From an uncultured Planctomycetota bacterium (GTDB lineage Bacteria; Planctomycetota; PUPC01; DSUN01), in assembly GCA_964506385.1 (NCBI GenBank), contig CAZDNN010000001.1, forward strand, positions 1 to 52,344: a stretch of DNA of 52,344 nucleotides, written 5' to 3'. The translations under genes were made by a program, and so were the position numbers. Below, piece by piece: positions 3,001 to 20,827 of the stretch (positions within the stretch are counted from its first letter, which is position 1; the number at the start of each line of letters is the position of its first letter). Under the pieces are notes generated by a model. That model was not told the origin of the DNA. It did not search any database and was given only the letters and a program-made list of their open reading frames with translations.

Positions 3001-3248
3001 GCAAGGGGGCGCTGAGATGGCTGGTGCTCGCCGAGCACTGGGGGCTGGTGGTGCTGGGGCTGGGCTGCGGGGTGGTGGCCGCCCTGGTGGCTGTGGCGCC
3101 GGCCCTGCGTTCGCCCGGAGCGTCGATGCCGATGGTGTCGCTGCCGCTGACGCTGGCAGCGGTCCTGGCGAGCGGCCTGGTCTGGACGTGGCTCGCCGCG
3201 GCGTGGGCGCTGCGAAGCCCGCTGTTATCCGCGTTGCGGAATGAGTAG
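1..3248 (+). CDS. ABC-transporter permease of the FtsX/MacB type with two FtsX modules; 5' end lies outside the window
   Basis: The frame is open from the window edge to TAG 3246-3248. There are two FtsX-type signature regions (FGIEQRAAEVGTLLAVGYRPRD and VLERRAELALLRAVGFRKG). Each is followed by hydrophobic helices, and they are separated by large soluble domains. The first residues (VGALVVGDSVRHSLR) look like the end of TM1. Confidence 0.8.
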   Translation, partial: TAVLVGALVVGDSVRHSLRTFALMRLGRVHAAIASEDRFFRARLGEEVARQLSAPAAAALQLRGVAVRGDGEARANQVHVLGVTAGFWELGGTEDLLAGGEEEQVVLNERLAGHLGVGVGDAVLLRVAKPSLLPRDAPLSSDADTAVAFRLTVKGVASDEQFGRFSLRASQIPPYNAFVPLGWLQERVGLPGRANLLLVGKAVKMEHLRGALRWQLADAGLELRQVRLPELTPMERQLHALPPTAAFELRSERVFIDPPVAEAAMRVAHAEGVLAYFVNELRVGDRTTPYSIVAGGGLQLRRHIQLGEDDVLINQWLADDLGARAGDTLEMTYFVLGPMRSLKEQTASFRIVGVEPMDRVEAYRTLMPDFPGVAEAENCRDWEPGIPIDLGRIRDKDEAYWERYRGTPKAFVTLAAAQRMWGNRFGNLTAIRFPLDAGTKERLAKAIRDEIDPASVGLFFRPVREEALAAGDQALDFGQLFLGLSFFLIVAALLLMGLLFAFGIEQRAAEVGTLLAVGYRPRDAHRLLLLEGGALALVGGAVGAVLGTLYTAVMLRGLATVWSGAVGGTPALMLHAEGTTLAIGAASSILVALAAMWLVLRRQARRPARELLAGDVGAGRAAIRRRGRAALWAGLVAIVLAVGLVAWAGASQDRRAAGAFFGAGALLLIGGLCLSHALLGRLGRAAASRLTLGGLGVRNATRRRGRSLAVVGLLACGAFLVVSVGANRRDPAADAERRDSGTGGFALLGQSALPILRDLNTDGGRDAYSLDADALAGASVVHLRVHEGDDASCLNLNRAQAPRLLGVRPEELASRQAFAFSRVIRRKAGQSPWLLLGSNEGPDVVPCIGDEATVVWGLGKKLGDVIPSTDERGRPFRLHLVGVITNSVLQGSLLISEASFEKRFPSEAGYRMFLIDAPRGRREAVAKALSRGLEDAGLELVPTARRLADLNAVQNTYLSIFQALGGLGLLLGSAGLGVVVLRNVLERRAELALLRAVGFRKGALRWLVLAEHWGLVVLGLGCGVVAALVAVAPALRSPGASMPMVSLPLTLAAVLASGLVWTWLAAAWALRSPLLSALRNE

Positions 3249-3260
3249 AATAGAGGGACA

Positions 3261-3291
3261 GGGCGGTGGGGACGCGCACTCCTCACCGCCC
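3261..3291 (+). terminator. Stem-loop directly after the permease gene (possible terminator, no U-tract)
   Basis: Arms GGGCGGTGGGGA (3261-3272) and TCCTCACCGCCC (3280-3291) pair at 11 of 12 positions, with a 7-nt loop. Confidence 0.3.
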
Positions 3292-3340
3292 TGCGCGGCC
3301 TGAGGCCCTGGGGAATCCCCGGCCCGCATTCGGGATCGTG

Positions 3341-4735
3341 ATGCAGTTCCTGCTCGGCAAGCTGATGCCCGCCGCGACGGCTCTGGCTGGTGCCTTCGCG
3401 CTGGTCCTGTGGCTCAAGGCAGGCCCGCCGGTGGACGTCGAGGAGCGCCTGCCCGGCCAGGACGGCGCGCCGGAGCAGCGCGCGCTGGCGCAAGGCCCCG
3501 TCCACCTCACCAGCCGGCTCATCCGCGGCGAGGGCAAGCCGGCCGACCTTCCTGGCGCCTGGCCGCGCTTCCGCGGGCCAAGGCTCGACAACATCGTCCA
3601 CAGCGAGACGACCCTCGCCCGCGAGTGGCCCAAGGGCGGTCCGCCGAAGCTCTGGACCCTCGAGATGGCCGAGGGCTACGCCGCCGCCGCAGTCTGGAAG
3701 GGCCGGGTCTTCGTCCACGACTACGATCGCGAGGCGAGCCAGGAGGCCATCCGCTGCCTCTCCCTGGCCGACGGCGCGGAGATATGGCGGTTCGTCTACT
3801 CGCTGAAGATCAAGATGAACCACGGCATCACCCGCACGATGCCCGCCGTCACGGAGAAGCATCTGGTCGCCCTCGGCCCGCTGTGCCACGTCACCTGCCT
3901 CGATCCCGCGAGCGGCGCGAAGCGGTGGATGATCGACCTGGTGCGCGAGCACGGGGCGACCGTGCCGCCGTGGTATGCCGGCCAGTGCCCCCTCATCGAC
4001 GGCGAGCGGGCCATCCTCGCCCCCGGCGGCCCAGAGGCGCTGCTCATGGCTGTCGAGTGCGCCACGGGCAAGATCCTCTGGAAGACGCCGAACCCCGATG
4101 AGTGGCGGATGACCCACTCGTCGATCGTGCCCGTGACGCTCGCGGGCAGGCGGATGTACGTCTACTGCGCCCATCGCGGGGTGGTCGGCGTGTCGGCCGA
4201 CGACGGGCGGCTGCTGTGGAGGACGCCCGAGTGGCGGATCAGCATCGCCACCATCCCCTCGCCCGTGCCGCTGCCCGGGGACCGGCTGTTCCTGACGGGC
4301 GGCTACAACGCGGGCAGCCTCATCCTCCAGCTCAAGGCGCAGGGCGACGGCGTCGGCGTCGAGGTCGTGAAGCGGCTCCCGCCCAAGGTCTTCGACTCCG
4401 AGCAGCACACGCCGATCCTCTACGAGGGGCATCTCTACGCCGTCCGCAGCGACGGGCGGCTGGCGTGCGCCGACCTCGAGGGAAACCCGCTGTGGGACAG
4501 CGGGCCAGACAAGTTCGGCCTAGGGCCCTATCTCATCGCCAACGGCCTGATCTTCGTGATGGACGACGACGCGCGGATGGTGCTGGCCGAGGCCACGCCC
4601 GGAGGCTACCGCAAGCTGGCCGACGCCAGGATACTCGACGGCCACGACGCCTGGGGCCCCATGACCCTCGTCGAAGGCCGCCTCATCGTCCGCGACATGA
4701 CGCGCATGGTCTGCCTCGACGTCCGCGCCCGCTGA
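3341..4735 (+). CDS. PQQ-like (BamB-like) beta-propeller repeat protein 1, N-terminal membrane anchor or signal
   Basis: ORF 3266-4735. Start moved to ATG 3341 (MQFLLGKLMPAATALAGAFALVLWL, a hydrophobic segment). AWPRFRGP motif followed by repeated blade-like segments (G.VFV.D, LVALG, GRLLW..). Confidence 0.8.
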   Translation: MQFLLGKLMPAATALAGAFALVLWLKAGPPVDVEERLPGQDGAPEQRALAQGPVHLTSRLIRGEGKPADLPGAWPRFRGPRLDNIVHSETTLAREWPKGGPPKLWTLEMAEGYAAAAVWKGRVFVHDYDREASQEAIRCLSLADGAEIWRFVYSLKIKMNHGITRTMPAVTEKHLVALGPLCHVTCLDPASGAKRWMIDLVREHGATVPPWYAGQCPLIDGERAILAPGGPEALLMAVECATGKILWKTPNPDEWRMTHSSIVPVTLAGRRMYVYCAHRGVVGVSADDGRLLWRTPEWRISIATIPSPVPLPGDRLFLTGGYNAGSLILQLKAQGDGVGVEVVKRLPPKVFDSEQHTPILYEGHLYAVRSDGRLACADLEGNPLWDSGPDKFGLGPYLIANGLIFVMDDDARMVLAEATPGGYRKLADARILDGHDAWGPMTLVEGRLIVRDMTRMVCLDVRAR

Positions 4736-4752
4736 GGTCAGCGCGCGCGACT

Positions 4753-4773
4753 CCCTCTCCCGCCGGGAGAGGG
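4753..4773 (+). terminator. 9-bp stem / 3-nt loop hairpin after propeller 1 (REP-like or terminator)
   Basis: CCCTCTCCC-GCC-GGGAGAGGG is perfectly complementary. No U-tract follows. Confidence 0.25.
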
Positions 4774-4851
4774 CAGGGATGAGGGGCGCGGCGGCCAGTT
4801 GCCGCTCGAGGTGGGGCGGCGAGTTCGAGCAGGAGCACGAGCGAGAGCCTG

Positions 4852-5874
4852 ATGACCGACCAGCAGACCGAAACCCGGAAAGCCCTGTGGATCGTCCTCG
4901 GCGTAGTGGGGCTGTGCGTCCTGGCGGCGCTGCTCCTGGCCGTAGCCGGCGCGGTGGTGTACTTCATGCTGGCGGCGAAGGTCGCGGACGACAAGCCGAG
5001 CGGCCTGAGCCCCGAGTTCGACTACGCAGTCGAGGCGCTCCAGCCGGTGGACCCCGAGCTGATTGGCTACCTGGAGACAGGGTCCATCGCGGTCTCGCTG
5101 CGCGAGCCCCGCGGGATCGCGATCGGCCCGGGCGACAGCCTCTACGTCGCGGGCGACGAGACGATCCTCGTCCGCGGCAGCAAGGCGCAGGAGATCAAGC
5201 TGGCGGCACCGCCGCGGGCCATTGCCGTGGACGCCGACGGCACGATCTACGTGGCGATGAAGGACCACGTGGAGGTCTACTCGCCCGCGGGCGAGAAGAG
5301 GGCCGCCTGGCAGCGGCTGGCGGGCAAGGCCCTGCTTACGTCCATCGCGGTGGGCGAGCCTGGGGTGTTCGTCGCCGATGCGGGGAACCGCGAGGTCGTG
5401 CAGTACGACAGGGCCGGGAAGGCCCTTCGCCGCTTCGCCCGCAAGGACCCCGAGCGCGGCATCCCTGGGCTGATCGTGCCGAGCCCTTACCTCGACGTGG
5501 CCATTGGCCGCGACGGCCTCCTGCGGGTGGCGAACCCTGGGCGCCGCCGCGTCGAGACCTACACGATGGACGGCAGCCTCGAGCTGTCGTGGGGCAGGGC
5601 GGGCGTCGCTATCGACGCGTTCGGCGGATGCTGCAACCCGAGCCACCTCGCCGTGTTTCCTGACGGGCGGGTGGTCACCAGCGAGAAGGGCACGGTGCGG
5701 GTGAAGGTCTACGACGCGCAGGGCGTCCTGCTCACGGTTGTCGCAGCGGCGCCAGAGTCGTTCGATCAGGACGCCGTGGGTCTGGACCTGGCGGTGGACT
5801 CCCGGGGGCGTGTGTTCGTGCTCGACCCCGGCCGGAAGGTGGTACGCATCTTCTCGCGGAAGGAGGCGCAGTGA
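4852..5874 (+). CDS. NHL-repeat six-bladed beta-propeller protein with N-terminal transmembrane anchor
   Basis: N-terminal helix ALWIVLGVVGLCVLAALLLAVAGAVVYFML. Six NHL-like repeats (GIAIGPGDSLYVAGDE, AIAVDADGTIYVAMKD, SIAVGEPGVFVADAGNREVVQYD, DVAIGRDGLLRVANPGRRRVETY, HLAVFPDGRVVTSEKGTVRVKVYD, DLAVDSRGRVFVLDPGRKVVRIF). Confidence 0.8.
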   Translation: MTDQQTETRKALWIVLGVVGLCVLAALLLAVAGAVVYFMLAAKVADDKPSGLSPEFDYAVEALQPVDPELIGYLETGSIAVSLREPRGIAIGPGDSLYVAGDETILVRGSKAQEIKLAAPPRAIAVDADGTIYVAMKDHVEVYSPAGEKRAAWQRLAGKALLTSIAVGEPGVFVADAGNREVVQYDRAGKALRRFARKDPERGIPGLIVPSPYLDVAIGRDGLLRVANPGRRRVETYTMDGSLELSWGRAGVAIDAFGGCCNPSHLAVFPDGRVVTSEKGTVRVKVYDAQGVLLTVVAAAPESFDQDAVGLDLAVDSRGRVFVLDPGRKVVRIFSRKEAQ

Positions 5875-6095
5875 GCCGGCACCACGATAGGGGTGAAAGC
5901 CGCCGCGAGGCCGTGCGGGGCCTGCTCCGCTGGCTGGCCGCCGGCGCGCTCGCGCTGCTCGGCGGGTGGCTGGCGCTGCGGCGCCGCTCGGGCGACGGGT
6001 GCGCCGTGCGCCCCGCGTGCCGAGGCTGCTCGCGGCTGGAGGCGTGCGCCCTGCCGCAGGCCGAGAGCGCCCGACGGGCGGAGGCGAAGGGGTAG
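5871..6095 (+). CDS. Small (74 aa) single-TM protein with RR motif and C-x6-C-x2-C-x5-C tail
   Basis: GTG 5871 is preceded by AGGAGG (5861-5866) and overlaps the NHL stop (GTGA). The ORF ends 3 nt before the next ATG. Sequence ESRREAVRGLLRWLAAGALALLGGWLAL then GCAVRPACRGCSRLEAC. Confidence 0.5.
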   Translation: MSRHHDRGESRREAVRGLLRWLAAGALALLGGWLALRRRSGDGCAVRPACRGCSRLEACALPQAESARRAEAKG

Positions 6096-6098
6096 ACG

Positions 6099-6692
6099 AT
6101 GGCGGACGAGGACAAGACGGTGGATCGCCGCGAGGTCCTCCGCAGCGGCGTGCGCGGCGTCTGCCTGCTCGGTCTGGGCGGCGCCGCCGGCTTCCTGGCG
6201 ACCCGCAGCCGGGGGGACGACCTGGTCTGGCAGCTCGACCCCGAGGTCTGCATCCAGTGTGGGAATTGCGCCACCTACTGCGTGCTCAACCCCTCGGCGG
6301 TCAAGTGCGTTCAGTACTATCCGATGTGCGGGTACTGCGATCTATGCACAGGCTACTTCGAGGCCGAGCCGAACGACCTCAATACCGGCGCCGAGAATCA
6401 GCTCTGCCCTGTCGCTGCCATCAAGCGCACGTTCATCGAGGAGCCCTTCTTCAAGTACGACATCATCGAGGAGCTGTGCATCGGCTGCGGGAAATGCGTC
6501 GAGGGCTGTCGCGCCTTCGGCAACGGCTCGTTCTATCTCCAGGTGCGCCACGACCGCTGCCTGAACTGCAACGAGTGCTCCATCGCGGCCGCGTGCCCCT
6601 CTCAAGCGTTCCGCCGCGTCCCTGCTGCGCGGCCCTACATCCATCCCAAGGGACATCCCGATCGCCGAGCCGAGGACGACCGGCAGACGTGA
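6099..6692 (+). CDS. Tat-signal periplasmic poly-[4Fe-4S] ferredoxin (NapG/MauM-like)
   Basis: Twin-arginine leader (DRREVLRSGVRGVCLLGLGGAAGFLA). Cys motifs CIQCGNCATYC, CGYCDLC, CIGCGKCVEGC, CLNCNECSIAAACP. Confidence 0.8.
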   Translation: MADEDKTVDRREVLRSGVRGVCLLGLGGAAGFLATRSRGDDLVWQLDPEVCIQCGNCATYCVLNPSAVKCVQYYPMCGYCDLCTGYFEAEPNDLNTGAENQLCPVAAIKRTFIEEPFFKYDIIEELCIGCGKCVEGCRAFGNGSFYLQVRHDRCLNCNECSIAAACPSQAFRRVPAARPYIHPKGHPDRRAEDDRQT

Positions 6693-7978
6693 GACCGCGC
6701 GCCCACATCCTGATCGCCCTCGTGCTGCTCGTGATGATCGGCGGCGCGGCCCTGGGCGTCGAGCGCTTCCCGCCGCCCGATTTCGAGTCAGGGCACACCT
6801 TCCCCGCGACTCAGTATCCTGCCCCGCGGTCCGTTGTCCTCGAGTACCTGGACGTGGCGGTGCTGTTTGTGGCGCTGGTGCTGGCGTCGTTCTATGCCCT
6901 GAAGGTGCGGTCGCGGCGGTGGCTTTTCGTCCTGATGCTGGCGTCGCTGGCGTACTTCGGCTTCTGGCGGAAGGGCTGTGTGTGCTCGGTGGGGGCCGTG
7001 CAGAACGTGGCGCTTGGGGTCTTCAACTCGGGCTACGCCGTGCCGCTGACGGTGCTGGCCTTCTTCCTGCTGCCGCTGGCCTTCACGCTGCTTTTCGGGC
7101 GGACCTTCTGCGCCGCGGTGTGTCCGCTGGGGGCGATGCAGGATTTCGTGCTGGTTCGGCCGGTGCGGGTGCCGTGGTGGCTGGAGCAGGGGCTGCGGGT
7201 GCTGCCCGTCGTCTACCTGGCGCTGGCCGTCGTGCTGGCGGGGACGGGCAGCGCGTTCGTCATTTGCGACTACGACCCGTTCGTCGCCTTCTTCCGGCGG
7301 AGCGGGAACGCTTCGATGCTGATCTTCAGCGGCTGCATCCTGGCCATCGGGGTGTTCGTGGGACGCCCCTACTGCCGTTTCCTGTGCCCGTACGGGGTGC
7401 TGCTCGGGTGGCTGTCGCGTGTTTCGAGGTGGCGGGTGCGGATCACGCCGGACGAGTGCATCCAGTGCCGGCTGTGCGAGGACGCCTGTCCCTTCGGCGC
7501 GATTCGTGCGCCCGACGAGGCGCCGGCGCCGAGCGAGGTGGCGGCGGGTCGGCGGCGGGTCGGCTGGCAGCTCATGGCCGTGCCGGTGCTGGTGGTTGTG
7601 GGCGCCATGGTGTTCGGGGTGTTCCGGTTCTCGCTGGCCCGGATGCATCCTCAGGTGCGATTGGCCGAGCGGGTGTGGCAGGAGGAGAAGGGGGAGGTCG
7701 AGGGCCGGACCGACGCGAGCAAGGCGTTCCGCAGGACGGGCCAGCCGGTCGAGGAGCTGTATGCGGAGGCCCGTGCCATCCGCGCTGACGTGGGGCGTTT
7801 CGGGTGGGGTGTGGGTGCGCTGGTGGGGCTGGTCGTCGGGCTGCGGGTGCTCGGCCTGACGGTTCGCCGTCGGCAGACGGACTACGAGGCGGACCGCAGC
7901 GAGTGCCTGGCCTGCGGGCGCTGTTTCGAGTACTGCCCGAACGAGAAGCGACGACGGAAGGCGATCGAGGATGCCTGA
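6689..7978 (+). CDS. Integral-membrane polyferredoxin of the NapH/MauN type
   Basis: GTG 6689 overlaps the ferredoxin stop (GTGA). The upstream part of ORF 5966-7978 is out-of-frame overlap with two other genes. Several TM helices. Two CxxxCP motifs (FCAAVCPLG, YCRFLCPYG). Two 4Fe-4S motifs (CIQCRLCEDACP, CLACGRCFEYCP) separated by two further hydrophobic helices. Confidence 0.8.
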   Translation: MRPRAHILIALVLLVMIGGAALGVERFPPPDFESGHTFPATQYPAPRSVVLEYLDVAVLFVALVLASFYALKVRSRRWLFVLMLASLAYFGFWRKGCVCSVGAVQNVALGVFNSGYAVPLTVLAFFLLPLAFTLLFGRTFCAAVCPLGAMQDFVLVRPVRVPWWLEQGLRVLPVVYLALAVVLAGTGSAFVICDYDPFVAFFRRSGNASMLIFSGCILAIGVFVGRPYCRFLCPYGVLLGWLSRVSRWRVRITPDECIQCRLCEDACPFGAIRAPDEAPAPSEVAAGRRRVGWQLMAVPVLVVVGAMVFGVFRFSLARMHPQVRLAERVWQEEKGEVEGRTDASKAFRRTGQPVEELYAEARAIRADVGRFGWGVGALVGLVVGLRVLGLTVRRRQTDYEADRSECLACGRCFEYCPNEKRRRKAIEDA

Positions 7979-9776
7979 CGCCGCCGACAACGCGTGTGCC
8001 GAGAGCCGCGGTCTGTCCGACGCCGCCTTCCGCGGCGCCGTGGCGACCGCGGCGGTGGCAGGCCTCTTCGTCCTGATCGTCGCCGGCCTGCTGCTGTGGA
8101 ACCACGCTCGGACGGTGGCTCTCGACCCCCGCGACCCCGTGCGGATCGTCACGCTGAAGACGCAGCTCCGGGAGCGTCCGAAGGACGAGGCGCTGAAGAC
8201 CGGCATCCGCGCCGCCGACGCGGCGCTGCGGCGGGAGTTCTTCGCCCGCCAGGCATTCGCCGAGCGGGGCGCGTGGCTGCTGGCTATCGGACTGATCGTG
8301 TTCCTGGCCTCGGCCAAGAGCGCGTCCGATCTCCGCAAGAAGCCGCCCATGCCGACCGGCGCTCCGCCGCACCGCGACGAGCGCTCCAAGGCTGCTGCCT
8401 GGGCGCGGCATGCCGTGGCGGCGGTCGCCACCGTCACGGCGTTCGCCTTCGCCGTCCTTGCGTGGAGTTCGCTCCACACGCTGCCGAGGACTGCGCTCGC
8501 CGCAAAGCCGGCCACCAGCATCCCCGGCGACAGCGGGACCCCCGAGGGGATTGGGACGCCGGGCGTTGCGCTCACCGGCTATCCGTCGCCCGAGGAAATG
8601 GCGGCGCAATGGCCTCGCTTCCGCGGCCCTGGGGGCCTGGGCATCGCCACTTACACGAATGCCCCGATGGCGTGGAACGGCAAGACAGGCGAGGGCGTGG
8701 TCTGGAAGACCCCCGTGCCGCTCACCGCGCCCAACTCGCCGGTGGTCTGGGGTGACCGCATCTTCCTGTCGGCCGCGAAGAAGGACCGCCGCGAGGTCTA
8801 TTGCTTCGGCCTCAACGACGGCAAGCTGCTGTGGACGGGCGAGGTCGAGGGCGTGCCCGGCAGCCCGGCCAAGCCGCCCGAGGTGATGGAAGCCACAGGC
8901 TACGCCGCCTCCACCGTGGCGACCGACGGGAGGCGGGTCTTCGCCATCTTCGCCAACGGCGATCTCGCGGCCTTCGACTTCGGCGGCAGGCGCATCTGGG
9001 CGAAGAACCTGGGGAAGCCGGACAACAGCTACGGCCACGCCTCCTCCCTGCTCACCTGGCGCGACCGCCTCATCGTCCTGATGGACCAGGGGATGGAGGA
9101 CGACGACAAGTCGAAGCTCTACGCCTTCGACACCGCCACGGGCGATCAGGTGTGGGCCACCGTCCGCGAGGTCGGCCCAACGTGGGCCACCCCCATCGCG
9201 ATCGAGGCGGGCGGGCGCCAGCAGATCGTAACCGTGGCCGTGCCCTGGCTCATCGCCTACGCCGCCGAGACAGGCAAGGAGCTGTGGTCTGCCGATATCA
9301 TGGATGGCGAGATCGCCCCGTCGCCCGTCTTCGCCAACGGCTGCGTCTTCGTCGCCCAGGCATACGCCTACGCCGCAGCCGTCCGCGCGGATGGGACGGG
9401 TGACGTGACGAAGACCCACGTCGTCTGGAAGGCCGAGGACGGCCTGCCCGACACGTGCAGCCCCGTGACCAACGGCGAGCTGCTCTTCCTGTGCACCGCC
9501 GACGGCCTGATCACCTGCTACGACGCCAAGACGGGCGAGAAGGCCTGGGAGCACGAGACGAAGCCGCTGATGCACTTCCTGGCCTCGCCCACCGTGGTCG
9601 GCGACAGGGTCTACGTGATGAGCGACAAGGGCGTGACGATCGTCTTTGCGGCGGCCCGCGAGTGGAAGGAACTGGCTCGCTGCGAGCTCGGCGAGCACGC
9701 GGTGGCCAGCCCAGCGTTCCTCGACGGACGGATCATCTTCCGCGGCAGCAAGCACCTCTTCTGCATCGGGAAGTAA
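7971..9776 (+). CDS. PQQ-like beta-propeller repeat protein 2 with long N-terminal two-helix membrane region
   Basis: ATG 7971 overlaps the NapH-like stop by 8 nt. Hydrophobic helices VATAAVAGLFVLIVAGLLLW and AWLLAIGLIVFLASA, with a third near AVAAVATVTAFAFAVLAW. QWPRFRGP motif, then propeller blades. Confidence 0.8.
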   Translation: MPDAADNACAESRGLSDAAFRGAVATAAVAGLFVLIVAGLLLWNHARTVALDPRDPVRIVTLKTQLRERPKDEALKTGIRAADAALRREFFARQAFAERGAWLLAIGLIVFLASAKSASDLRKKPPMPTGAPPHRDERSKAAAWARHAVAAVATVTAFAFAVLAWSSLHTLPRTALAAKPATSIPGDSGTPEGIGTPGVALTGYPSPEEMAAQWPRFRGPGGLGIATYTNAPMAWNGKTGEGVVWKTPVPLTAPNSPVVWGDRIFLSAAKKDRREVYCFGLNDGKLLWTGEVEGVPGSPAKPPEVMEATGYAASTVATDGRRVFAIFANGDLAAFDFGGRRIWAKNLGKPDNSYGHASSLLTWRDRLIVLMDQGMEDDDKSKLYAFDTATGDQVWATVREVGPTWATPIAIEAGGRQQIVTVAVPWLIAYAAETGKELWSADIMDGEIAPSPVFANGCVFVAQAYAYAAAVRADGTGDVTKTHVVWKAEDGLPDTCSPVTNGELLFLCTADGLITCYDAKTGEKAWEHETKPLMHFLASPTVVGDRVYVMSDKGVTIVFAAAREWKELARCELGEHAVASPAFLDGRIIFRGSKHLFCIGK

Positions 9777-12130
9777 TGGCGGACGAGATCGACCTGAGCT
9801 ACGTGGACGAGGCGGTGGCGGCGATCGGGCGCGGCCCCGAGTGCGTCATCCCCCTCCTCCAGGCCATCCAGGGGCACTACCGCTACCTGCCCGAGGCCGC
9901 CCTGCGCCGCGCCTGCGCCATCACCGAGATCACGCCCGCCACCATCGCGGGCGTCTCGACCTTCTACTCGCAGTTCCGCCACCGCCCCATGGGCGAGCAC
10001 CTCATCCGCGTCTGCGTCGGCACCGCGTGCCACGTGAAGGGCGCCGGCCTCGTGTACGACGAGTTCGTCCGCCGCCTCGGCGTCCCTGACGGCGACGACA
10101 CTGACCCCGACGGCCTGTTCACCATCGAGAAGGTCGCCTGCCTGGGCTGCTGCACCCTGGCGCCGGTCATCCAGATCGACGACGTGACCTACGGCCATCT
10201 GAGCCCCGAGACGGTGCCCCGCGTCGTGCGCGACTTCCTGGAACTGGATCGCGGCGGCGAGCACCATCCCCACGAGAGCGACTCTGCGACGGGGGGGGAC
10301 ATCGAGAGCGAGATCCGCATCAGCCTCGACACCTGCTGCGTCGCCCGGGGCAGTGCCGAGGTGTACAAGGCTCTCAAGGATGCCGTCGAGCAGACGGGGG
10401 CGCGCGCCCTCGTGAAAGGCGTGGGGTGTACGGGCATGTCCCACCTGACCCCGCTGGTGGAGGTCGCCGCCAAGGGGCGTCCGCGTGCGCTCTACACAGC
10501 GGTGACACCGCTCGAGGCCAGGGCGATTGTCCTCCGCCACTTCCAGCCGAGGGGGCTCGGCAGGAGGCTTGCGGCGGCAGTCACGGGGTTGCTCGACACG
10601 GCATTCACCGACGATACCTGGGGGGCGGTGGACCGCCACGCGATCGACGTGCGCGACGCGCCCATCGCCGAGTTCGTCGGCAGGCAGAAGCAGATCGCGA
10701 CGGAGCATTCGGGCCAACTCAGCCCGCTCGACCTCGACGAGTACCTCGAGCACGACGGCTTCCAGGCGCTCGAGCGGTGCCTGCGAGAGTACACCGCCGA
10801 TGACGTGATCGCGGAGATCCGCCGCAGTGGCCTGCGCGGCAGAGGCGGTGCGGGCTATGCCACGGGACTCAAATGGCAGCACGTGCGCGCGGCCCCAGGC
10901 GACAGGAAGTACCTCGTGTGCAACGGCGACGAGGGCGACCCCGGCGCGTTCATGGACCGCATGATGCTCGAGTCGTTCCCCTATCGCATCATCGAGGGGA
11001 TGGCGATCGCCGCCTGCGCGGTCGGTGCCGATGAGGGCTACCTCTACATCCGCGCCGAGTACCCGCTCGCCGTACAGCGGATGAGGGCCGCGCTGCGCCG
11101 CTGCGAGGAACACGGCTACCTGGGCGACGACATCCTCGGCAGCGGCGTTCGCCTGCGGCTCCGCATCATGGAGGGTGCTGGCGCGTTCGTATGCGGCGAG
11201 GAGACGGCGCTCCTGGCGTCCATCGAGGGCCGCCGGGGGATGCCGCGCCTGCGGCCGCCGTATCCCGCTCTCGAGGGCCTGTGGGGCAAGCCCACGCTCG
11301 TCAACAACGTCGAGACCTACGCAGTGGTGCCCTGGATCATCCGCCACGGCGCCGAGGCCTTCGCTGCCATGGGCACGCCCGAGAGCAGGGGCACCAAGGT
11401 GTTCGCCCTCGCGGGCAAGGTGGCCCGGGGCGGGCTCATCGAGGTGCCGATGGGGATCTCGCTGCGCGAGATCGTCGAGGAGATCGGCGGCGGGATCGTT
11501 GGCGGGAAGGGCCTCAAGGCCGTCCAGATCGGCGGCCCATCCGGCGGATGCGTCCCCGCCCGGCTCGCACACACCCCAGTAGACTACGAGGACCTGGCCG
11601 ACGTCGGCGCCATGATGGGCTCCGGCGGCCTCGTCGTCCTCGACGACAGCGACTGCATGGTGGACATCGCCCGGTACTTCCTCGAGTTCACCCAGGACCA
11701 GGCGTGCGGCAAGTGCACTTTCTGCCGCATCGGCACCCGCCGCATGCTCGACATCCTCGAGCGGCTGTGTGCCGGCGAAGGCCGCAAGGGGGACCTCGAG
11801 GATCTCGAGACCCTGAGCCACATGGTCAAGCAGGGCAGCCTGTGTGGCCTGGGCCGCACCGCGCCGAACCCCGTGCTCACGACGCTCCGGTACTTCCGCG
11901 ACGAGTACGAGGCGCACATCGAGGGGCGCTGTCCCGCGGGCAGATGTCGCGCGCTCATCACCTACTCGATATCCGATGCGTGCATCGGCTGTACCCGCTG
12001 CGCCCAGCACTGCCCCGCCGAGGCCATCGCCATGACGCCCTACGAGCGTCACGAGATCGACCAGGAGAAGTGCATCAAGTGTGGGACGTGCAGGAACGTC
12101 TGCCCCGTTGATGCCGTCGAGGTCGAATGA
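9776..12130 (+). CDS. NuoE-NuoF fusion flavoprotein (NAD(P)H-binding FMN/FeS subunit of HydB/HoxF/NuoF type) with C-terminal 2x[4Fe-4S] domain
   Basis: ATG 9776 overlaps the TAA of the previous gene (TAATG). NuoE-like 2Fe-2S cysteines (CVGTACHVKG, CLGCCTLAP). NuoF signatures GRGGAGYATGLKW, VCNGDEGDPGAFMDR, CGKCTFCRIGT. C-terminal CIGCTRCAQHCP and CIKCGTCRNVCP. Confidence 0.9.
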   Translation: MADEIDLSYVDEAVAAIGRGPECVIPLLQAIQGHYRYLPEAALRRACAITEITPATIAGVSTFYSQFRHRPMGEHLIRVCVGTACHVKGAGLVYDEFVRRLGVPDGDDTDPDGLFTIEKVACLGCCTLAPVIQIDDVTYGHLSPETVPRVVRDFLELDRGGEHHPHESDSATGGDIESEIRISLDTCCVARGSAEVYKALKDAVEQTGARALVKGVGCTGMSHLTPLVEVAAKGRPRALYTAVTPLEARAIVLRHFQPRGLGRRLAAAVTGLLDTAFTDDTWGAVDRHAIDVRDAPIAEFVGRQKQIATEHSGQLSPLDLDEYLEHDGFQALERCLREYTADDVIAEIRRSGLRGRGGAGYATGLKWQHVRAAPGDRKYLVCNGDEGDPGAFMDRMMLESFPYRIIEGMAIAACAVGADEGYLYIRAEYPLAVQRMRAALRRCEEHGYLGDDILGSGVRLRLRIMEGAGAFVCGEETALLASIEGRRGMPRLRPPYPALEGLWGKPTLVNNVETYAVVPWIIRHGAEAFAAMGTPESRGTKVFALAGKVARGGLIEVPMGISLREIVEEIGGGIVGGKGLKAVQIGGPSGGCVPARLAHTPVDYEDLADVGAMMGSGGLVVLDDSDCMVDIARYFLEFTQDQACGKCTFCRIGTRRMLDILERLCAGEGRKGDLEDLETLSHMVKQGSLCGLGRTAPNPVLTTLRYFRDEYEAHIEGRCPAGRCRALITYSISDACIGCTRCAQHCPAEAIAMTPYERHEIDQEKCIKCGTCRNVCPVDAVEVE

Positions 12131-12134
12131 ACGC

Positions 12135-12190
12135 GTGATCCGTGATTTGTGATGCGTGACTGAAGGGAGGGCGAGGCTCCCGCCGAGCCG
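12135..12190 (+). repeat. Intergenic repeat: tandem heptads GTGATNN x3.5 followed by copy 1 of the 26-nt box GGGAGGGCGAGGCTCCCGCCGAGCCG
   Basis: GTGATCC GTGATTT GTGATGC GTGA (12135-12159). The box at 12165-12190 recurs at 16312, 26922 and, inverted, at 26965. Confidence 0.7.
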
Positions 12191-12210
12191 CGACCAAGGG
12201 GAAGCGACGC

Positions 12211-13788
12211 GTGCCGACGCTGACGATCGACAATCGCGAGGTGACGGTGCCCGAGGGGGCGACCGTGCTCGATGCAGCCCGGGCGCTGGGCATCGAGATC
12301 CCGACGCTGTGCCACCTCGCCGGGCGCGAGCCGGCCACTTCGTGCATGGTGTGCGTCGTCAAGGTGGCTGGCCGCAACGGGCTGGTGCCGGCGTGCGCGA
12401 CGGCGGCCAGCGAGGGGATGCGTGTGGAGAGCGAGACCGACGAGGTGCGCGCCGCGCGCCGCACGGCCCTCGAGCTCCTGCTCAGCGACCACGTCGGCGA
12501 CTGCGTCGGCCCGTGCCACAACCTGTGCCCGGCGCAGATGAACATCCCGGTGATGATCCGCCAGATCGCCCGCGGCGAGCTGCGCGAGGCCGCCGCGACG
12601 GTGAAGGCCGACATCCCGCTGCCCGCCACCCTCGGCCGCATCTGCCCGGCGCCGTGCGAGAAGGGCTGCCGGCGTGGCGAGGCCGATGCCCCTGTGTCCA
12701 TCTGCCTGCTCAAGCGCTACGTCGGCGACGCCGACCTCGCCTCGGGCGAGCCCTGGCTGCCGGACTGTGCGCCCAGCTCGGGCAAGCGGGTGGCCGTCGT
12801 CGGGGCTGGCCCGGCCGGCCTGTCCGCCGCCTTCTACCTGCTCGCGCGGGGCCACGCCTGCACGGTCTTCGACGACCACCCGGAGCCGGGCGGCGCCCTC
12901 CAGTACGCCGTGCCGGAGGAGAGGCTGCCGCGCGACGTCGTGCAGGCCGAGGCGGCCGCCATCGCGCGCCTGGGCGCCGAGTTGCGCCTGGGGACGCGGG
13001 TCGGCGAAGCCGTCTCCCTGGACGACCTGCGCCGCGAGTTCGACGCGGTGCTCGTCGCGGCGGGAGAGGGGAGCTCCGAGCACTTCGGTCTCCCTGCCTC
13101 GAAGCAGGGGGTGGCGGTGGACCGGCAGACGCTGGCGACGGAGCTCGAGGGCGTCTTCGCGGCGGGAAGCGCGGTGCGGCCTCAGCGCATGGCGGTGCGC
13201 TCGGTGGCCGACGGCAAGACCGCGGCCGCGTCGATCGGCCAACTCCTGCGTGGGGAGGCGGTCGTTGGGCCGCCCAAGCTGTTCACCACGCGGATGGGGC
13301 GCTTGCAGGATGGCGAGCTCGCTGCTTTCATGGAAGGAGCCAGTGAGGCCGCGCGGGTGACGCCATCCGGGAACGGCTTCTCGGACGACGAGGCCCGGGC
13401 CGAGGCGGCGCGCTGCCTGCACTGCGATTGCCGCAAGCCGGCGAGCTGCAAGCTCCGCCGCTACGCCGCTGCCTGCGGCGCGAGCCCCAGCCGCTACAGG
13501 GCGGAGCGCCGGCCCTTCGTCCAGCACGCGCATCACCCCGAGCTGGTCTTCGAGCCGGGGAAGTGCATTGACTGCGGGCTGTGCATCGGGATCGCGGCGG
13601 AGGCTGGCGAGGAGCTGGGCCTGGCGTTCATCGGCCGCGGCTTCAACGTCCGCGTCGGCGTGCCCTTCGAGGAGCCGCTCGAGCGGGGTCTGGCGCGGGT
13701 CGCGAGGGCGTGCGCAGCCGCGTGCCCGACGGGCGCGCTCGCACTTCGGGACGGGGAGGACACGGGTCGCAACCATGGAGGGTCGTGA
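12211..13788 (+). CDS. 2Fe-2S ferredoxin domain fused to GltD-like (glutamate synthase small-chain-like) FAD/NAD(P)H oxidoreductase with C-terminal FeS motifs
   Basis: GTG start. N-terminal TIDNREVTVPEGATVLDAARALGIEIPTLCH...CMVCVV. GltD-type CPAPCEKGCRRG. Dinucleotide fold GKRVAVVGAGPAGLSAAFYL. C-terminal CLHCDC and CIDCGLC...CPTGAL. Confidence 0.85.
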   Translation: MPTLTIDNREVTVPEGATVLDAARALGIEIPTLCHLAGREPATSCMVCVVKVAGRNGLVPACATAASEGMRVESETDEVRAARRTALELLLSDHVGDCVGPCHNLCPAQMNIPVMIRQIARGELREAAATVKADIPLPATLGRICPAPCEKGCRRGEADAPVSICLLKRYVGDADLASGEPWLPDCAPSSGKRVAVVGAGPAGLSAAFYLLARGHACTVFDDHPEPGGALQYAVPEERLPRDVVQAEAAAIARLGAELRLGTRVGEAVSLDDLRREFDAVLVAAGEGSSEHFGLPASKQGVAVDRQTLATELEGVFAAGSAVRPQRMAVRSVADGKTAAASIGQLLRGEAVVGPPKLFTTRMGRLQDGELAAFMEGASEAARVTPSGNGFSDDEARAEAARCLHCDCRKPASCKLRRYAAACGASPSRYRAERRPFVQHAHHPELVFEPGKCIDCGLCIGIAAEAGEELGLAFIGRGFNVRVGVPFEEPLERGLARVARACAAACPTGALALRDGEDTGRNHGGS

Positions 13789-13789
13789 C

Positions 13790-15037
13790 ATGGGGAAGAG
13801 CTGGGCGGCGGTGGGTGTGTTGATCGGGCTGGCCGCTCCGATCGCTTCGGCGAGCGCCGCGGACTGGCCGCAGTGGCGCGGCCTGACCCGCGACGGCGTG
13901 GCGGCCGGCGTCAAGCTCCCCGACCCGTGGCCGCCGGCGCTGACGCGGGCCTGGTCGCTGGAGGTGGGCCTCGGCCACTCCTCGCCGGTGGTCGCTGGCG
14001 GCAAGGTCGTCCAGCAGGCCCGCCAGGGCGAGGAAGAGGTGGTGCGCTGCATCGACGCGGCGAGCGGCAAGGTGGTCTGGCAGGCCGCCTTCGCCGCCGG
14101 CCCCTTCGCGCCGCGGCCCGTGGCCCGCGCGCACGGCAGAGGCCCGTTCGCCACGCCGACCGTCGCCGACGGGAAGGTCTACACCCTCGGCGTCTCGGGG
14201 GTGCTGGCCTGCTACGACCTGGCCAGCGGCAAGCGCCTCTGGCAGAAGACCTTCGCCAACGAGTATGAGAAGCCCTATCCCATCTGGGGCGCTGCGAACT
14301 CCCCGCTCATCGACGGCACCCGCTGCATCCTCACCGTGGGCACCGACGCCGACGGCGCACTGGCCGCCTTCCACAAAGACACGGGCGAGGCGCTCTGGCG
14401 GGTGACCGACGTCGGCCCCGCCTACACGTCGCCCCAGATCGCCACCCTGGCGGGAAAGCGGCAGGTCGTCACGCTCACGCACAAGCGTCTGTGCGGCGCC
14501 GACGACCAGACGGGGAAGCTGCTCTGGCAGATCCCCTTCAAGGTCCGCTACGACATGAACATCATCACGCCCGTCGTCCACGGCGACCTCGTGGTCTACT
14601 CGGGCTACCACGAGGGCACCGCCGCGGTGCGCGTCGCGGCGGGGGACGGGAAGCTGGCGGCCCAGAAGCGGTGGCACAACAAGGGGGAGTCCATGTTCAT
14701 GAGCTCGCCCGTCCGCCGCGGCGGCCACATCTACGGCCTGTCGATGCGCGGCAAGGGCACGCTGGTGTGCCTGGCGCTCGCCGACGGCAAGACCGCGTGG
14801 GCGTCGCCCGGCCGCATGGGCGAGTATGCGTCGCTGGTGCTCGTCGGCGACAGGCTGCTCGTGATGACCACGGGGGGCGACCTGCTGCTCGTTGCGGCCG
14901 ACCCCGGCGGCTACAGGGAGCTGGCCCGCTCACACCTGACCGACCGCCCTGTCTGGGCGCATCTCGCCGTGACTGACAAGGTCCTATGCGTCAAGGACAA
15001 GACGCACCTCACGTGCTTCGCGCTCGGCGCCGAGTGA
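13790..15037 (+). CDS. PQQ-like beta-propeller repeat protein 3, cleavable signal peptide
   Basis: ATG 13790 lies 1 nt after the previous stop; ATG 13775 is an alternative. Signal MGKSWAAVGVLIGLAAPIASASAADWPQWRG, then blades. Confidence 0.8.
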   Translation: MGKSWAAVGVLIGLAAPIASASAADWPQWRGLTRDGVAAGVKLPDPWPPALTRAWSLEVGLGHSSPVVAGGKVVQQARQGEEEVVRCIDAASGKVVWQAAFAAGPFAPRPVARAHGRGPFATPTVADGKVYTLGVSGVLACYDLASGKRLWQKTFANEYEKPYPIWGAANSPLIDGTRCILTVGTDADGALAAFHKDTGEALWRVTDVGPAYTSPQIATLAGKRQVVTLTHKRLCGADDQTGKLLWQIPFKVRYDMNIITPVVHGDLVVYSGYHEGTAAVRVAAGDGKLAAQKRWHNKGESMFMSSPVRRGGHIYGLSMRGKGTLVCLALADGKTAWASPGRMGEYASLVLVGDRLLVMTTGGDLLLVAADPGGYRELARSHLTDRPVWAHLAVTDKVLCVKDKTHLTCFALGAE

Positions 15038-15050
15038 AGGAGGCCCCGCC

Positions 15051-16298
15051 GTGCGACGTCACCGATTCCTGGAGGCGGTGGCCTTGTCGTGTCTGTGCTC
15101 GGCTGTGGCGGTCGCCGCCGAGACCCACCCCTGGCCCCAGTTCCACGGCCCGCGCCGCGACAACATGTCTACGGAGACCGGCCTGCTCGAGCAGTGGCCC
15201 GAGGGCGGACCCAAGCTGCTGTGGACCTTCCAGGGCCTCGGCCACGGCTTCTCCACCCTCGCCATCGCACACGGCCTCATCTACACCACGGGCAACATCG
15301 GCGCCGATACCGTCATCAGCGCACTCACCCTCGACGGCAAGCTCGCCTGGCGGGCCACCAACGGCCCCGCCTACCGTCGCCAGCACCGCGGCGCCCGGGG
15401 CACCCCTACCATCGACGGCGAGCGCCTCTACCACGAGAATGCCGACGGCGATCTCGTCTGCCTCGAGGCGAAGACGGGCAAGAAGGTCTGGGGGCTCAAC
15501 ATCCTCAAGAAGTTCGGCGGCCGCAACATCACCTGGGGCCTCGCCGAATCGGTGCTCATCGACGGCCGCAAGCTCATCTGCACCCCCGGCGGCCCCGAGA
15601 TCACCATGGTCGCCCTCGACAAGGCCAGCGGCGAGACGATCTGGGCCTGCAAGGGCGGCAAGCACAAGCCAGGCTACGCCTCACCCATCGTCTTCGACTA
15701 CAGGGGGCTGCGGCAGGTCACCACCATGCTCGCCAAGTCGATCATCGGGGTGAACGCGGAGACGGGCGAGCTCCTCTGGCAGGTCGGCCACACCACGCCC
15801 TTCGACGAGAACATCTTCACGCCCCGCTACCACGACGGCCACCTCTACTTCGCCACCGGCCACCGCGTCGGCAGCCGCCTGCTCAAGCTCAACGTCCAGG
15901 GCGACAAGTGCGCGGTCGATCTCGTCTGGAAGACCGAGCGCCTCGACAGCCACCACGGCGACGTCCTGCTCATCGACGGCTGCCTCTACGGCTACGCCCA
16001 CGGCAAGTACAAGTGGTGTTGGGAGTGTCTGGACTGGAAGACGGGCAAGCTGATGCACAGCGTCCGCACGCCGACAAAAGGCTCCATTACGTTCGCCGAC
16101 GGCCTGATCTACGCGCGGAACGAGAAGGGCCTCGTCGAGCTCATCAGGCCCACGCCCGAGCGTCGCGAGGTCATCAGCAGCTTCCACATCCCCAAGGGTG
16201 GCCGCGGCCCCACGTGGGCGCACCCCGTCGTCTGCGGCGGCCGCCTCTACCTCCGCCACAGCGACTTCCTCTACGCCTACGACATCAAAGGGAAGTGA
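15051..16298 (+). CDS. PQQ-like beta-propeller repeat protein 4, signal peptide
   Basis: GTG 15051 lies 7 nt after GAAGGAGG. Signal AVALSCLCSAVAVAAETHPWPQFHGP, then blades. Confidence 0.8.
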   Translation: MRRHRFLEAVALSCLCSAVAVAAETHPWPQFHGPRRDNMSTETGLLEQWPEGGPKLLWTFQGLGHGFSTLAIAHGLIYTTGNIGADTVISALTLDGKLAWRATNGPAYRRQHRGARGTPTIDGERLYHENADGDLVCLEAKTGKKVWGLNILKKFGGRNITWGLAESVLIDGRKLICTPGGPEITMVALDKASGETIWACKGGKHKPGYASPIVFDYRGLRQVTTMLAKSIIGVNAETGELLWQVGHTTPFDENIFTPRYHDGHLYFATGHRVGSRLLKLNVQGDKCAVDLVWKTERLDSHHGDVLLIDGCLYGYAHGKYKWCWECLDWKTGKLMHSVRTPTKGSITFADGLIYARNEKGLVELIRPTPERREVISSFHIPKGGRGPTWAHPVVCGGRLYLRHSDFLYAYDIKGK

Positions 16299-16311
16299 TC
16301 CCTGGCGGGCA

Positions 16312-16343
16312 GGGAGGGCGAGGCTCCCGCTGAGCCGCTCAGC
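16312..16343. repeat. Copy 2 of the 26-nt GGGAGGGCGAGGCTCCCGCTGAGCCG box, extended to a GCTGAGC-C-GCTCAGC hairpin between convergent genes (possible bidirectional terminator)
   Basis: Direct reading. Lies between stop 16298 (+) and stop 16348 (-). Confidence 0.6.
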
Positions 16344-16347
16344 CTGA

Positions 16348-20785: not shown

Positions 20786-20827
20786 GCCTGTCGGGCAGCG
20801 GGCCGAGGTCAGTTGAGTGGCGACGGG

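Follow-up and report, generated by a model that had tools for sequence, protein, structure and literature searches.

A conserved gene cluster encoding a Bfu-type flavo-iron-sulfur module, a NapH-like polyferredoxin and exported beta-propellers

We analysed a 52,344-nucleotide (nt) stretch of DNA from an uncultured Planctomycetota bacterium (GenBank assembly GCA_964506385.1, contig CAZDNN010000001.1, positions 1 to 52,344; hereafter the window), in which a run of ten genes on the + strand (3341 to 16298) encodes three layers of proteins: a cytoplasmic flavo-iron-sulfur module, a membrane polyferredoxin with a ferredoxin bearing a twin-arginine translocation (Tat) signal, and exported beta-propellers with a four-cysteine microprotein. 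By sequence, the cytoplasmic pair is a Bfu-type (NfnABC/Stn-like) module, and we tentatively read the whole cluster as a membrane-bound Bfu complex in which the third substrate site would be replaced by an iron-sulfur route to the periplasm.

The three layers had been proposed in an earlier reading of the same DNA (the original prediction) and were borne out, as was its statement that the run holds no recognised terminal catalytic subunit: no CxxCH (haem c) motif occurs in any cluster protein, and Pfam and NCBIfam searches of these proteins gave no molybdopterin, copper, hydrogenase or formate-dehydrogenase catalytic domain. Every domain call made there was reproduced with Pfam profiles. Membership of curated families was judged by the cut-offs of the NCBIfam models, with matches listed at E ≤ 0.001; among the models listed, the cut-off was reached by none of the cluster's proteins.

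Gene order and its spread

Relatives of the NapH-like polyferredoxin encoded in the run were collected by scanning one genome per species across 185,579 species with the window protein as query. At least 578 species carry such a relative, and the relatives number thousands, with a length of about 433 amino acids and 56-60% identity. The neighbourhood counts given here rest on the best 80 of these at least 578 loci (individual loci are denoted L001 and so on), all 80 of which lie in metagenome-assembled genomes. They are mainly from Planctomycetota, and the labels among them include Phycisphaerae, Sedimentisphaerales, Pirellulales, Planctomycetota, Aegiribacteria and Poribacteria, as well as Aminicenantes, Omnitrophota, KSB1, Verrucomicrobia and Deltaproteobacteria/Desulfatiglans.

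Nearly wherever the contig suffices, the genes follow one another in the order propeller P1, NHL propeller, microprotein, Tat ferredoxin, NapH-like polyferredoxin, propeller P2, NuoE-NuoF fusion and GltD-like protein. In a tblastn census, in which a gene was counted when found at its expected place relative to the NapH-like gene and only loci with enough contig were scored, the Tat ferredoxin was in place in 73 of 74 testable loci, the NHL propeller in 66 of 69, P1 in 59 of 65, P2 (after the NapH-like gene) in 69 of 71, NuoEF in 59 of 61, the GltD-like gene in 50 of 53, and an FtsX-type permease in 35 of 46. In 67 of 73 loci, the NHL gene is separated from the Tat ferredoxin gene by an open reading frame (ORF) equivalent to the microprotein and bearing the same Cys motif. 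The same order occurs in loci that span 50-70% guanine-plus-cytosine (G+C) content and carry several phylum labels, and such an arrangement far exceeds chance. Pairwise distances of seven core proteins correlate with one another (r = 0.84-0.95 over 47 loci, computed without an unlinked control gene), which fits inheritance as one block. The core comprises nine genes, since the last two propellers of the window, P3 and P4, are variable paralogues.

The junctions within the window are correspondingly tight. GTGA overlaps join the NHL gene to the microprotein gene (5871/5874) and the Tat ferredoxin gene to the NapH-like gene (6689/6692); the microprotein and Tat ferredoxin genes are separated by 3 nt, the NapH-like and P2 genes share 8 nt (7971/7978), P2 passes into NuoE-NuoF via TAATG (9774-9778), and the gaps from the GltD-like gene to P3 and from P3 to P4 are 1 nt and 13 nt. 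Larger gaps inside the unit are limited to two, 4736-4851 and 12131-12210. The second of these (80 nt) contains a run of GTGAT heptads in 3-4 copies, CGTGAT-CCGTGAT-TTGTGAT-GCGTGA (CGTGATCCGTGATTTGTGATGCGTGA), which on inspection has no second copy anywhere in the window; orthologous junctions elsewhere measure a few nt, for example 3 nt in L001. The idea of a dispersed repeat element filling this gap was accordingly dropped in favour of merely local heptads, unique in the window. A promoter and terminator scan of 3000-17000 gave no signal exceeding the shuffled expectation, and tRNA and Rfam scans over the window came back empty.

The ORF coordinates and junctions in the original prediction were all reproduced, and the translationally coupled run that it described stands with one correction of the count: nine genes lie between 4852 and 16298 and P1 makes ten, where ten plus one had been given. 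Its proposal of one conserved unit also holds, synteny being retained in related genomes. The combination had been put forward as not belonging to any described system; no published description of the arrangement was found in the literature searched, and the survey of the Bfu family (PMC9304861) mentions neither NapH nor propellers; an Omnitrophota preprint considered as a possible description proved unrelated. The components are of known kinds; what would be new is a Bfu enzyme with a third-partner module reached by way of a NapGH-like conduit.

The cytoplasmic module and the membrane conduit

Enzymes of the Bfu family share a BfuBC core, with flavin mononucleotide (FMN) and conserved clusters, that binds nicotinamide adenine dinucleotide (NAD(H)) and ferredoxin, and a BfuA subunit that relays electrons to a variable third substrate (PMC9304861). 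The family is modular in this third substrate, membrane-bound forms have been predicted, 17 BfuB clades are without an assigned function, and non-bifurcating homologues of similar sequence exist (PMC9304861). The minimal bifurcation site has been defined as [B1-FMN-C1] (PMC11829005 / PMC12018979), and structures are available for NfnABC of C. saccharolyticus (9BOV/9BP5) and T. sibiricus (9N5U/9N5V) and for Stn of S. ovata (8OH5) (PMC11829005, PMC12018979).

In the window, the NuoE-NuoF fusion (9776 to 12130, + strand) matches 2Fe-2S_thioredx at residues 12-153 (2.8e-44), Complex1_51K (8.6e-44), NADH_4Fe-4S (1.9e-32), and Fer4_21 and Fer4_7 at residues 734-782 (Pfam). It combines a NuoE-like (BfuC) thioredoxin-like [2Fe-2S] domain with a HydB/NfnB-like (BfuB) part that has an FMN/NADH site, an N3-type [4Fe-4S] cluster and a C-terminal 2x[4Fe-4S] ferredoxin domain. 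The best solved relative is NfnB of T. sibiricus (9n5u_B, 4e-214, residues 180-783 aligned); others are NfnB of C. saccharolyticus (9bov_B), Stn of S. ovata (8oh5_B) and HydB of the NiFe- and FeFe-HydABC complexes. The curated NuoF model scores 474 bits against a cut-off of 559. The NuoF-like FMN/NADH domain with its adjacent [4Fe-4S] cluster (B1) is present, CGKCTFCR and SLCGLG aligning with NfnB, as are the C-terminal 2x[4Fe-4S] clusters (B3/B4), for which both CxxCxxCxxxCP motifs align with 9n5u_B and are kept in orthologues, and the NuoE-like [2Fe-2S] cluster (C1), whose Cys motifs are likewise kept.

The GltD-like, or BfuA-like, protein (12211 to 13788, + strand) matches Fer2_4 (5.6e-18), Fer4_20 and several dinucleotide-binding families, the DAO, Pyr_redox_2 and NAD_binding_8 matches being confined to residues 193-249 (Pfam). 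Its layout is an N-terminal [2Fe-2S] domain, GltD-type 2x[4Fe-4S] clusters, a flavin adenine dinucleotide (FAD) domain and two more Cys/His cluster motifs. The N-terminal [2Fe-2S] and subsequent clusters expected of a BfuA subunit are found, residues 3-100 matching the N-termini of HydA, NuoG and HoxU, and the nearest solved relative is 9bov_A (4e-105), followed by 9n5u_A and 8oh5_C. The signature of the Lys-ligated A7 cluster is kept as LKR (SICLLKRY); this Lys signature is reported to be conserved in all NfnABC (PMC11829005 / PMC12018979).

Two parts of the Nfn subunit are missing. Against 9bov_A, about 107 residues (303-410) are skipped and the alignment stops at residue 671 of 1178, and the protein lacks the C-terminal molybdopterin-like domain. 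Across 55 of 55 orthologues, the Rossmann domain that binds reduced nicotinamide adenine dinucleotide phosphate (NADPH) is replaced by 27-41 residues (30-32 in nearly all), so that the NADP(H)-binding domain beside the FAD in Nfn-Bfu and Stn enzymes is absent; its motif GGGNTAMD appears only in the variant locus L087. The FAD fingerprint is retained in the family (GxGxxG in 56/56, D221 in 55/56, GGD in 41/56). Because the NADPH domain is deleted throughout these orthologues and the FAD fingerprint kept, the module cannot work as a transhydrogenase and needs another third redox partner. The original prediction of an FAD/NAD(P)H protein was therefore right for FAD and wrong for NAD(P)H, and its NuoEF/GltD-type module was correctly resolved into domains, its Bfu-type (NfnABC/Stn-like) nature having gone unrecognised.

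In a comparison with NfnABC/StnABC, the BfuB-like part matches NfnB along its whole length, including the FMN site, N3-type cluster and C-terminal 2x[4Fe-4S] domain. What the A subunit shares is its N-terminal [2Fe-2S] domain, the GltD-type clusters together with their Lys signature, the FAD domain and the cluster motifs that come after it. The differences are that C and B are fused here, and that A is without the NADPH Rossmann domain and the whole C-terminal domain. Whereas NfnABC and StnABC have an NADPH site and no membrane link, the window module sits in a membrane/periplasmic cluster. The comparison points to descent of the GltD-like subunit from an Nfn-type enzyme. In L087 (14915-16727), a variant of the cluster, the BfuA-like subunit with its NADPH Rossmann domain still in place resembles the ancestral Nfn-type form of the subunit, of which the window and 55 other loci have the truncated version.

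The NapH-like polyferredoxin (6689 to 7978, + strand; Fer4_5 3.9e-15) has about eight hydrophobic segments, two Fer4_5 stretches, two CxxxCP motifs and two CxxCxxCxxxCP motifs. For NapH itself, four helices and clusters facing the cytoplasm have been reported, and for NapG, export by Tat and four clusters; NapGH is described as a quinol dehydrogenase complex (PMC5449189). The window protein is 29% identical to E. coli NapH over 243 amino acids, and this alignment includes the first ferredoxin motif as well as both CxxxCP motifs and the four helices of the core. In the window protein, the four-helix core with its pair of CxxxCP motifs is accompanied by two 4Fe-4S motifs at the C-terminus, as in NapH. 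All NapH-like orthologues (83/83) share fifteen invariant Cys. Among these are C97 and C99 (GCxCP) and C193, which map to loops on the periplasmic side in NapH; at these three positions the E. coli protein carries no Cys. The family further carries an N-terminal signal-like helix with an invariant ERFPPPDFESG-type segment, and two additional helices between the ferredoxin motifs of which E. coli NapH has none. The sidedness of the protein and of its cysteines is predicted here from the topology of NapH together with hydrophobicity. Dual Sec-Tat insertion of its C-terminus (Tooke et al. 2017) was considered and set aside, no conserved twin-arginine motif being found before the last helices.

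The Tat-signal ferredoxin (6099 to 6692, + strand; Fer4 family matches) keeps its RR motif in ≥ 90% of orthologues and 17 Cys in 77-79 of 79, enough by count for four [4Fe-4S] clusters. BLASTP against E. coli NapG gave motif-level matches only. The assignment of the two proteins as NapG/NapH stands at the level of architecture, which the RR signal and conserved Cys of the ferredoxin fit. Among curated families, no NapG/MauM model was listed at E ≤ 0.001 for the ferredoxin, and the polyferredoxin stays far under its cut-offs: the NapH/MauN model TIGR02163 scored 43.6 bits against a cut-off of 213.05, and the NapH equivalog NF007013 scored 43.0 against 234. The pair resembles NapGH and NosGH in having a four-helix polyferredoxin with two CxxxCP and two cytoplasmic ferredoxin motifs beside a Tat-exported ferredoxin of about 16 Cys. 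It differs in the added signal-like helix, two helices and three loop Cys, as well as in the low identity to NapH, and the window cluster contains no NapA, NapB, NapC, NosZ or cytochrome. Membership of a nos cluster was rejected: there is no match to NosZ, NosD or NosL, NosR reaches 34.7 bits against 1000, and the ABC permease is of the FtsX type.

Propellers, microprotein and locus variants

P1 (3341 to 4735, + strand; PQQ_2 1.2e-38) is the best conserved of the propellers, with orthologues 52-78% identical, and is predicted to be exported or N-terminally anchored. Its AlphaFold2 model is an eight-bladed propeller (predicted local distance difference test, pLDDT, 88.8), for which Foldseek returned BamB, tetrathionate hydrolase 6L8A and the pyrroloquinoline quinone (PQQ)-dependent alcohol dehydrogenase 7WMK at a template modelling (TM) score of about 0.57 and 13-18% identity. 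Propellers of these three kinds superpose on P1, which differs from them in its own set of invariant polar residues (D127, Y128, D129, R138, K158, H161, R165, Q215, C216, H259, S261 and R451; H161 and H259 in 64/64 sequences). This set suggests a specific pocket, and together with the NHL propeller P1 is the candidate periplasmic "business end" of the system.

The NHL propeller (4852 to 5874, + strand; NHL 3.9e-11) was modelled by AlphaFold2 as a six-bladed propeller (pLDDT 90.1) behind a long N-terminal transmembrane helix (4-45), and its vicinal Cys-Cys pair (F-G-C-C-N-P; C260 and C261) is present in 72/72 orthologues. Its Foldseek matches were NHL domains of TRIM proteins and the sensor domain of PknD, and PAL came at rank 43. 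Searched by sequence against solved structures, P1, NHL and the NapH-like protein met nothing beyond BamB, NHL propellers of designed or TRIM origin, and ferredoxin motifs of a generic kind. The 74-amino-acid microprotein encoded between the NHL and Tat ferredoxin genes (5871 to 6095, + strand, from translation) has no Pfam or NCBIfam match; it consists of a twin-arginine-like N-terminus (RRxL), one hydrophobic helix, a basic stretch, the pattern C-x5-7-C-x2-C-x5-6-C and LPxA. An equivalent is also seen in L001, and such genes are mostly not annotated in public records.

P2 (7971 to 9776, + strand; PQQ_2 1.7e-28), whose gene is translationally coupled to that of the NapH-like protein, has hydrophobic segments at 24-42, 95-113 and 148-166, that is, three N-terminal helices followed by a linker and a PQQ_2/BamB-like propeller. 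P3 (13790 to 15037, + strand; PQQ_2 5.1e-35) and P4 (15051 to 16298, + strand; PQQ_2 4.2e-30) are accessory paralogues, PQQ_2/BamB-like with Sec-signal-like N-termini. P3 shares only about 30% identity with the propellers found downstream in other loci, such paralogues differing in number and order from locus to locus, and P4-type propellers lie downstream of the GltD-like gene in many loci. The mature parts of P1-P4 all start with W-P-x-F/W-R/H-G, and in all four the blades repeat the motif hxC(h)D..tGk..W, whose Cys looks buried; the conserved Cys of the propellers thus mostly resemble a structural feature of the repeat, not metal ligands. Two family assignments were tried and rejected. For PQQ-dependent dehydrogenases, TIGR03075 scored 34-51 bits against 480 and PF01011 covered about 40-90 of 595 positions; no PQQ-specific ligand pattern was identified in the cluster propellers. 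For the BamB equivalog, TIGR03300 scored 36-77 bits against 285 and NF008351 27-60 against 423, the likeness of fold being real but generic.

Upstream of P1, an FtsX-type ATP-binding cassette (ABC) permease (9 to 3248, + strand), its 5' end cut by the window start, matches Pfam FtsX in two stretches (9.4e-19) and has two FtsX domains with about 9-10 hydrophobic segments. Its counterparts in related loci are double-FtsX proteins of 1100-1300 amino acids, to which a further propeller gene is sometimes added. A family 4 glycosyltransferase (GT4), an ABC ATPase and FtsX precede P1 in L001 (79-6648), L002 (17-6123) and L022 (67-6670); the unit reaches upstream past the window start, into this set, which is an accessory module and a frequent companion of the cluster. 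In the Aminicenantes-labelled L070, the GT4-(ABC)-FtsX set lies downstream of the GltD-like gene, not upstream, and FtsX does not adjoin 11 of the 46 testable loci and is missing also from L086 and L087. On the downstream side, a convergent alpha-L-fucosidase gene (16348-18252, - strand) closes the unit after P4.

Some loci carry parts of the system or additions to it. Omnitrophota-labelled L067 and locus L084 (GCA_041320515.1, a 5.97-Mb contig, 10001-13169) hold sub-modules. In L084, P1 and NHL share a 4-nt overlap, and the next gene encodes a malectin-domain protein; its P1 is 61% identical to the window P1, and its NHL keeps the GCCNP motif with a lipoprotein-like N-terminus that replaces the long helix. 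KSB1-labelled L074 has genes for a TonB-dependent receptor and a glycogen phosphorylase inserted (11598-13733 and 15672-18140) and is syntenic in the rest, with a LytTR-type two-component pair upstream of the cluster. Because sub-modules occur apart (L067, L084) and the position of the companion varies (L070), the system is layered, with P1-NHL innermost, then the membrane conduit with P2, and then the cytoplasmic module.

Elsewhere in the window, where G+C content is about 70%, the patch 20200-22200 has a G+C fraction of 0.62 (vs ~0.70 elsewhere). It contains a 98-amino-acid ORF (20489-20785) resembling a ParE/RelE-type toxin and a 372-amino-acid ORF (21026-22144) with an HEVGH zinc-protease motif, and may be a small mobile or toxin-antitoxin island.

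Proposed electron route, alternatives and significance

In the membrane-bound Bfu complex that we tentatively propose, the fused BfuC-BfuB protein would take NADH at the FMN and ferredoxin at the C-terminal 2x[4Fe-4S] domain, and the NfnA-derived subunit would hand electrons on, by way of its iron-sulfur chain and FAD, to those clusters of the NapH-like protein that face the cytoplasm. The CxxxCP pairs and the periplasmic-loop cysteine triad of that protein would carry them across the membrane to the Tat-exported four-cluster ferredoxin, which would in turn serve an anchored periplasmic assembly of NHL (Cys-Cys), the 4-Cys microprotein, P1 and P2. The topology in this scheme is predicted from hydrophobicity and from homology to NapH, and the physical coupling of the modules, the transfer across the membrane and its direction are our reading of the parts. 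In lineages that are mostly anaerobic, electrons would most likely run outward, NADH and reduced ferredoxin driving a periplasmic reduction that acts as an electron sink; the reverse direction could also occur.

Several observations argue for this route. Depending on the gene, 50-73 of 53-74 testable loci, drawn from 80 species-level genomes with several phylum labels, retain the order of the seven-gene core; the microprotein is there in 67/73, the window junctions overlap or nearly abut, and the distances of the seven core proteins correlate (r = 0.84-0.95). Both cytoplasmic proteins match the same bifurcating complexes (NfnABC, Stn and HydABC), and the BfuB 2x[4Fe-4S] domain, the BfuC [2Fe-2S] cluster and the NfnABC Lys signature are all present. 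The deletion of the NADPH domain in 55/55 orthologues, with the FAD fingerprint kept, leaves the module in need of another redox partner. The NapH-like protein keeps all the cluster motifs of NapH and adds three invariant loop Cys, the Tat ferredoxin has its RR signal and 17 conserved Cys, and NapH/NapG offer a precedent for cytoplasmic-side clusters paired with a periplasmic four-cluster ferredoxin (PMC5449189). The Bfu family is itself modular in its third substrate, with membrane-bound forms predicted (PMC9304861). In the predicted Mbh-Bfu and Nuo-Bfu enzymes (Schut et al. 2022, PMC9304861), as in our scheme, a BfuBC core is wired to an integral-membrane module for the third partner; there the module consists of complex-I/Mbh-type proton-pumping subunits acting on quinone or H2, whereas in the window a NapH-type polyferredoxin would lead to propellers.

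Other observations weigh against it. Contact between the Bfu-like module and the NapH-like protein is shown by no experiment or structure, and NapGH counts as a quinol dehydrogenase, so that quinone could be the link (PMC5449189). No cofactor site is recognisable in the propellers, their nearest folds are scaffolds (BamB and TRIM NHL domains), and the P1 and NHL models met only scaffolds or generic propeller enzymes in Foldseek, with no transferable cofactor site. The window GltD-like protein has S320 in place of the GGD Asp, by which FAD binding may be weakened in this organism. The sub-modules noted above count here as well: in L067 the order is TatFd-NapH-like-P2-P1-NHL with the Bfu module absent in range, in L084 genes for a ferredoxin, a NapH-like protein and a Bfu module are all missing within 10 kb, and L087, with its intact NADPH domain, could be an ordinary transhydrogenase. 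The correlation of distances among core proteins also counts for less for want of an unlinked-gene control.

A narrower version of the proposal, an electron sink of a new kind, respiratory or fermentative, in which a haem-, quinone- and molybdopterin-free iron-sulfur wire would couple flavin-based NADH/ferredoxin confurcation to a periplasmic propeller reductase of a new, cysteine-based class (P1, the NHL Cys-Cys pair and the 4-Cys peptide), is unlikely in this full form. The most attractive candidate for its substrate would be a sulfur compound, whether thiosulfate, an organic disulfide or persulfide, polysulfide or elemental sulfur; we favour reduction of this kind because Bfu third substrates are typically low-potential. 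Elemental sulfur is reduced by several cultured anaerobic members of the Planctomycetota and, if this holds, the system could account for it. The likeness of the P1 model to tetrathionate hydrolase may be taken as a weak hint toward sulfur chemistry.

Among the alternatives, a link through quinone is unlikely but carries the most weight with us. Here the NapH-like protein and the Tat ferredoxin would form a (mena)quinol dehydrogenase, as NapGH and NosGH do, that feeds the propellers, and the Bfu-like module would be either a separate NADH/ferredoxin:quinone enzyme, with the exposed FAD as its quinone site in the manner of EtfABCX, or a balancer of redox pools, so that the quinone pool, and no protein wire, would link the modules. 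NapGH is described as a quinol dehydrogenase (PMC5449189), the window protein aligns with E. coli NapH over the four core helices and both CxxxCP motifs, the loss of the NADPH domain frees the FAD face for another acceptor, and L067 has the membrane and periplasmic genes with no Bfu module nearby. Yet P2 is followed by NuoEF in 59/61 loci and by the GltD-like gene in 50/53, the cysteine triad and extra helices are foreign to NapH, and no quinone-binding signature was identified in the cluster. It is rather improbable that the cluster serves envelope assembly or redox maintenance instead, with the propellers as non-catalytic scaffolds that work with GT4/ABC/FtsX on a glycolipid, lipoprotein or outer-membrane component, and with the iron-sulfur conduit reducing periplasmic thiols (the NHL Cys-Cys pair and the microprotein) as a functional analogue of DsbD/CcdA. 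Such a role would suit the closest folds of P1 and NHL, which are scaffolds or sensors (BamB, TRIM NHL, PknD), the invariance of the NHL Cys-Cys pair, the conservation of the 4-Cys peptide, and the GT4-ABC-FtsX set that accompanies the cluster in Planctomycetota loci and, in another position, in one Aminicenantes locus. It sits poorly with the lack of FtsX beside 11/46 testable loci and in L086 and L087, with the invariant polar residues of P1, of a kind seen more often in catalytic or specific binding pockets, and with a bifurcating-type module of about 15 iron-sulfur clusters, heavy machinery for the upkeep of thiols.

The original prediction had named the mau cluster as the closest analogy, and this survives as a conceptual likeness only: in both, a beta-propeller stands beside a small exported peptide with Cys and a ferredoxin paired with a polyferredoxin, whereas the mau cluster is without a Bfu module and the window propellers are of the PQQ_2/BamB and NHL types beside a microprotein with 4 Cys. 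Actual mau membership was rejected, no match to the MauA, MauB or MauG families being found with Pfam or NCBIfam and no CxxCH being present. A pathway of mau/qhp-type cofactor maturation, in which the microprotein would be a modified small catalytic subunit with a propeller partner, MauM/MauN-like proteins would act in biogenesis and ABC/FtsX in export, is quite improbable. It could draw on the co-occurrence of a propeller, a small Cys-rich twin-arginine-like peptide and a NapG/H-like pair, and on the ABC transporter linked to the cluster; set against these are the lack of any QhpD or radical S-adenosylmethionine match alongside MauA, MauB and MauG (Pfam and NCBIfam, cluster proteins), a microprotein with only 4 Cys and no aromatic or Trp-rich core, the want of a Bfu-type module in mau and qhp clusters alike, and a NapH/MauN score far under its cut-off. 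Mere adjacency, with an ordinary cytoplasmic Nfn-type enzyme beside unrelated exported propellers, is strongly disfavoured. In its favour are the variability of the paralogues P3 and P4, the abundance of PQQ_2 propellers in Planctomycetota and the complete Nfn-type A subunit of L087, but the order is kept across several phylum labels and 50-70% G+C, start and stop codons overlap in the window, and the loss of the NADPH domain in 55/55 orthologues excludes a transhydrogenase role.

If the membrane-bound Bfu complex is as we propose, it would be the first Bfu-type flavoenzyme with a third partner outside the cytoplasm and a rare case of trans-membrane electron transfer by iron-sulfur centres alone. 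It would give one substrate-less Bfu lineage a testable function, and would lend a function to many "PQQ-like/BamB-like" and NHL propellers now annotated without meaning. The carriers (labels Sedimentisphaerales, other Phycisphaerae, Aminicenantes, Omnitrophota and KSB1) are mostly uncultured, and by database labels their settings include an anaerobic digester, a sulfidic spring, cold seeps, and lake and marine sediments. The cluster may thus be a route, so far unrecognised, by which fermenters get rid of reducing equivalents, and would then bear on models of carbon, and possibly sulfur, flow in sediments.

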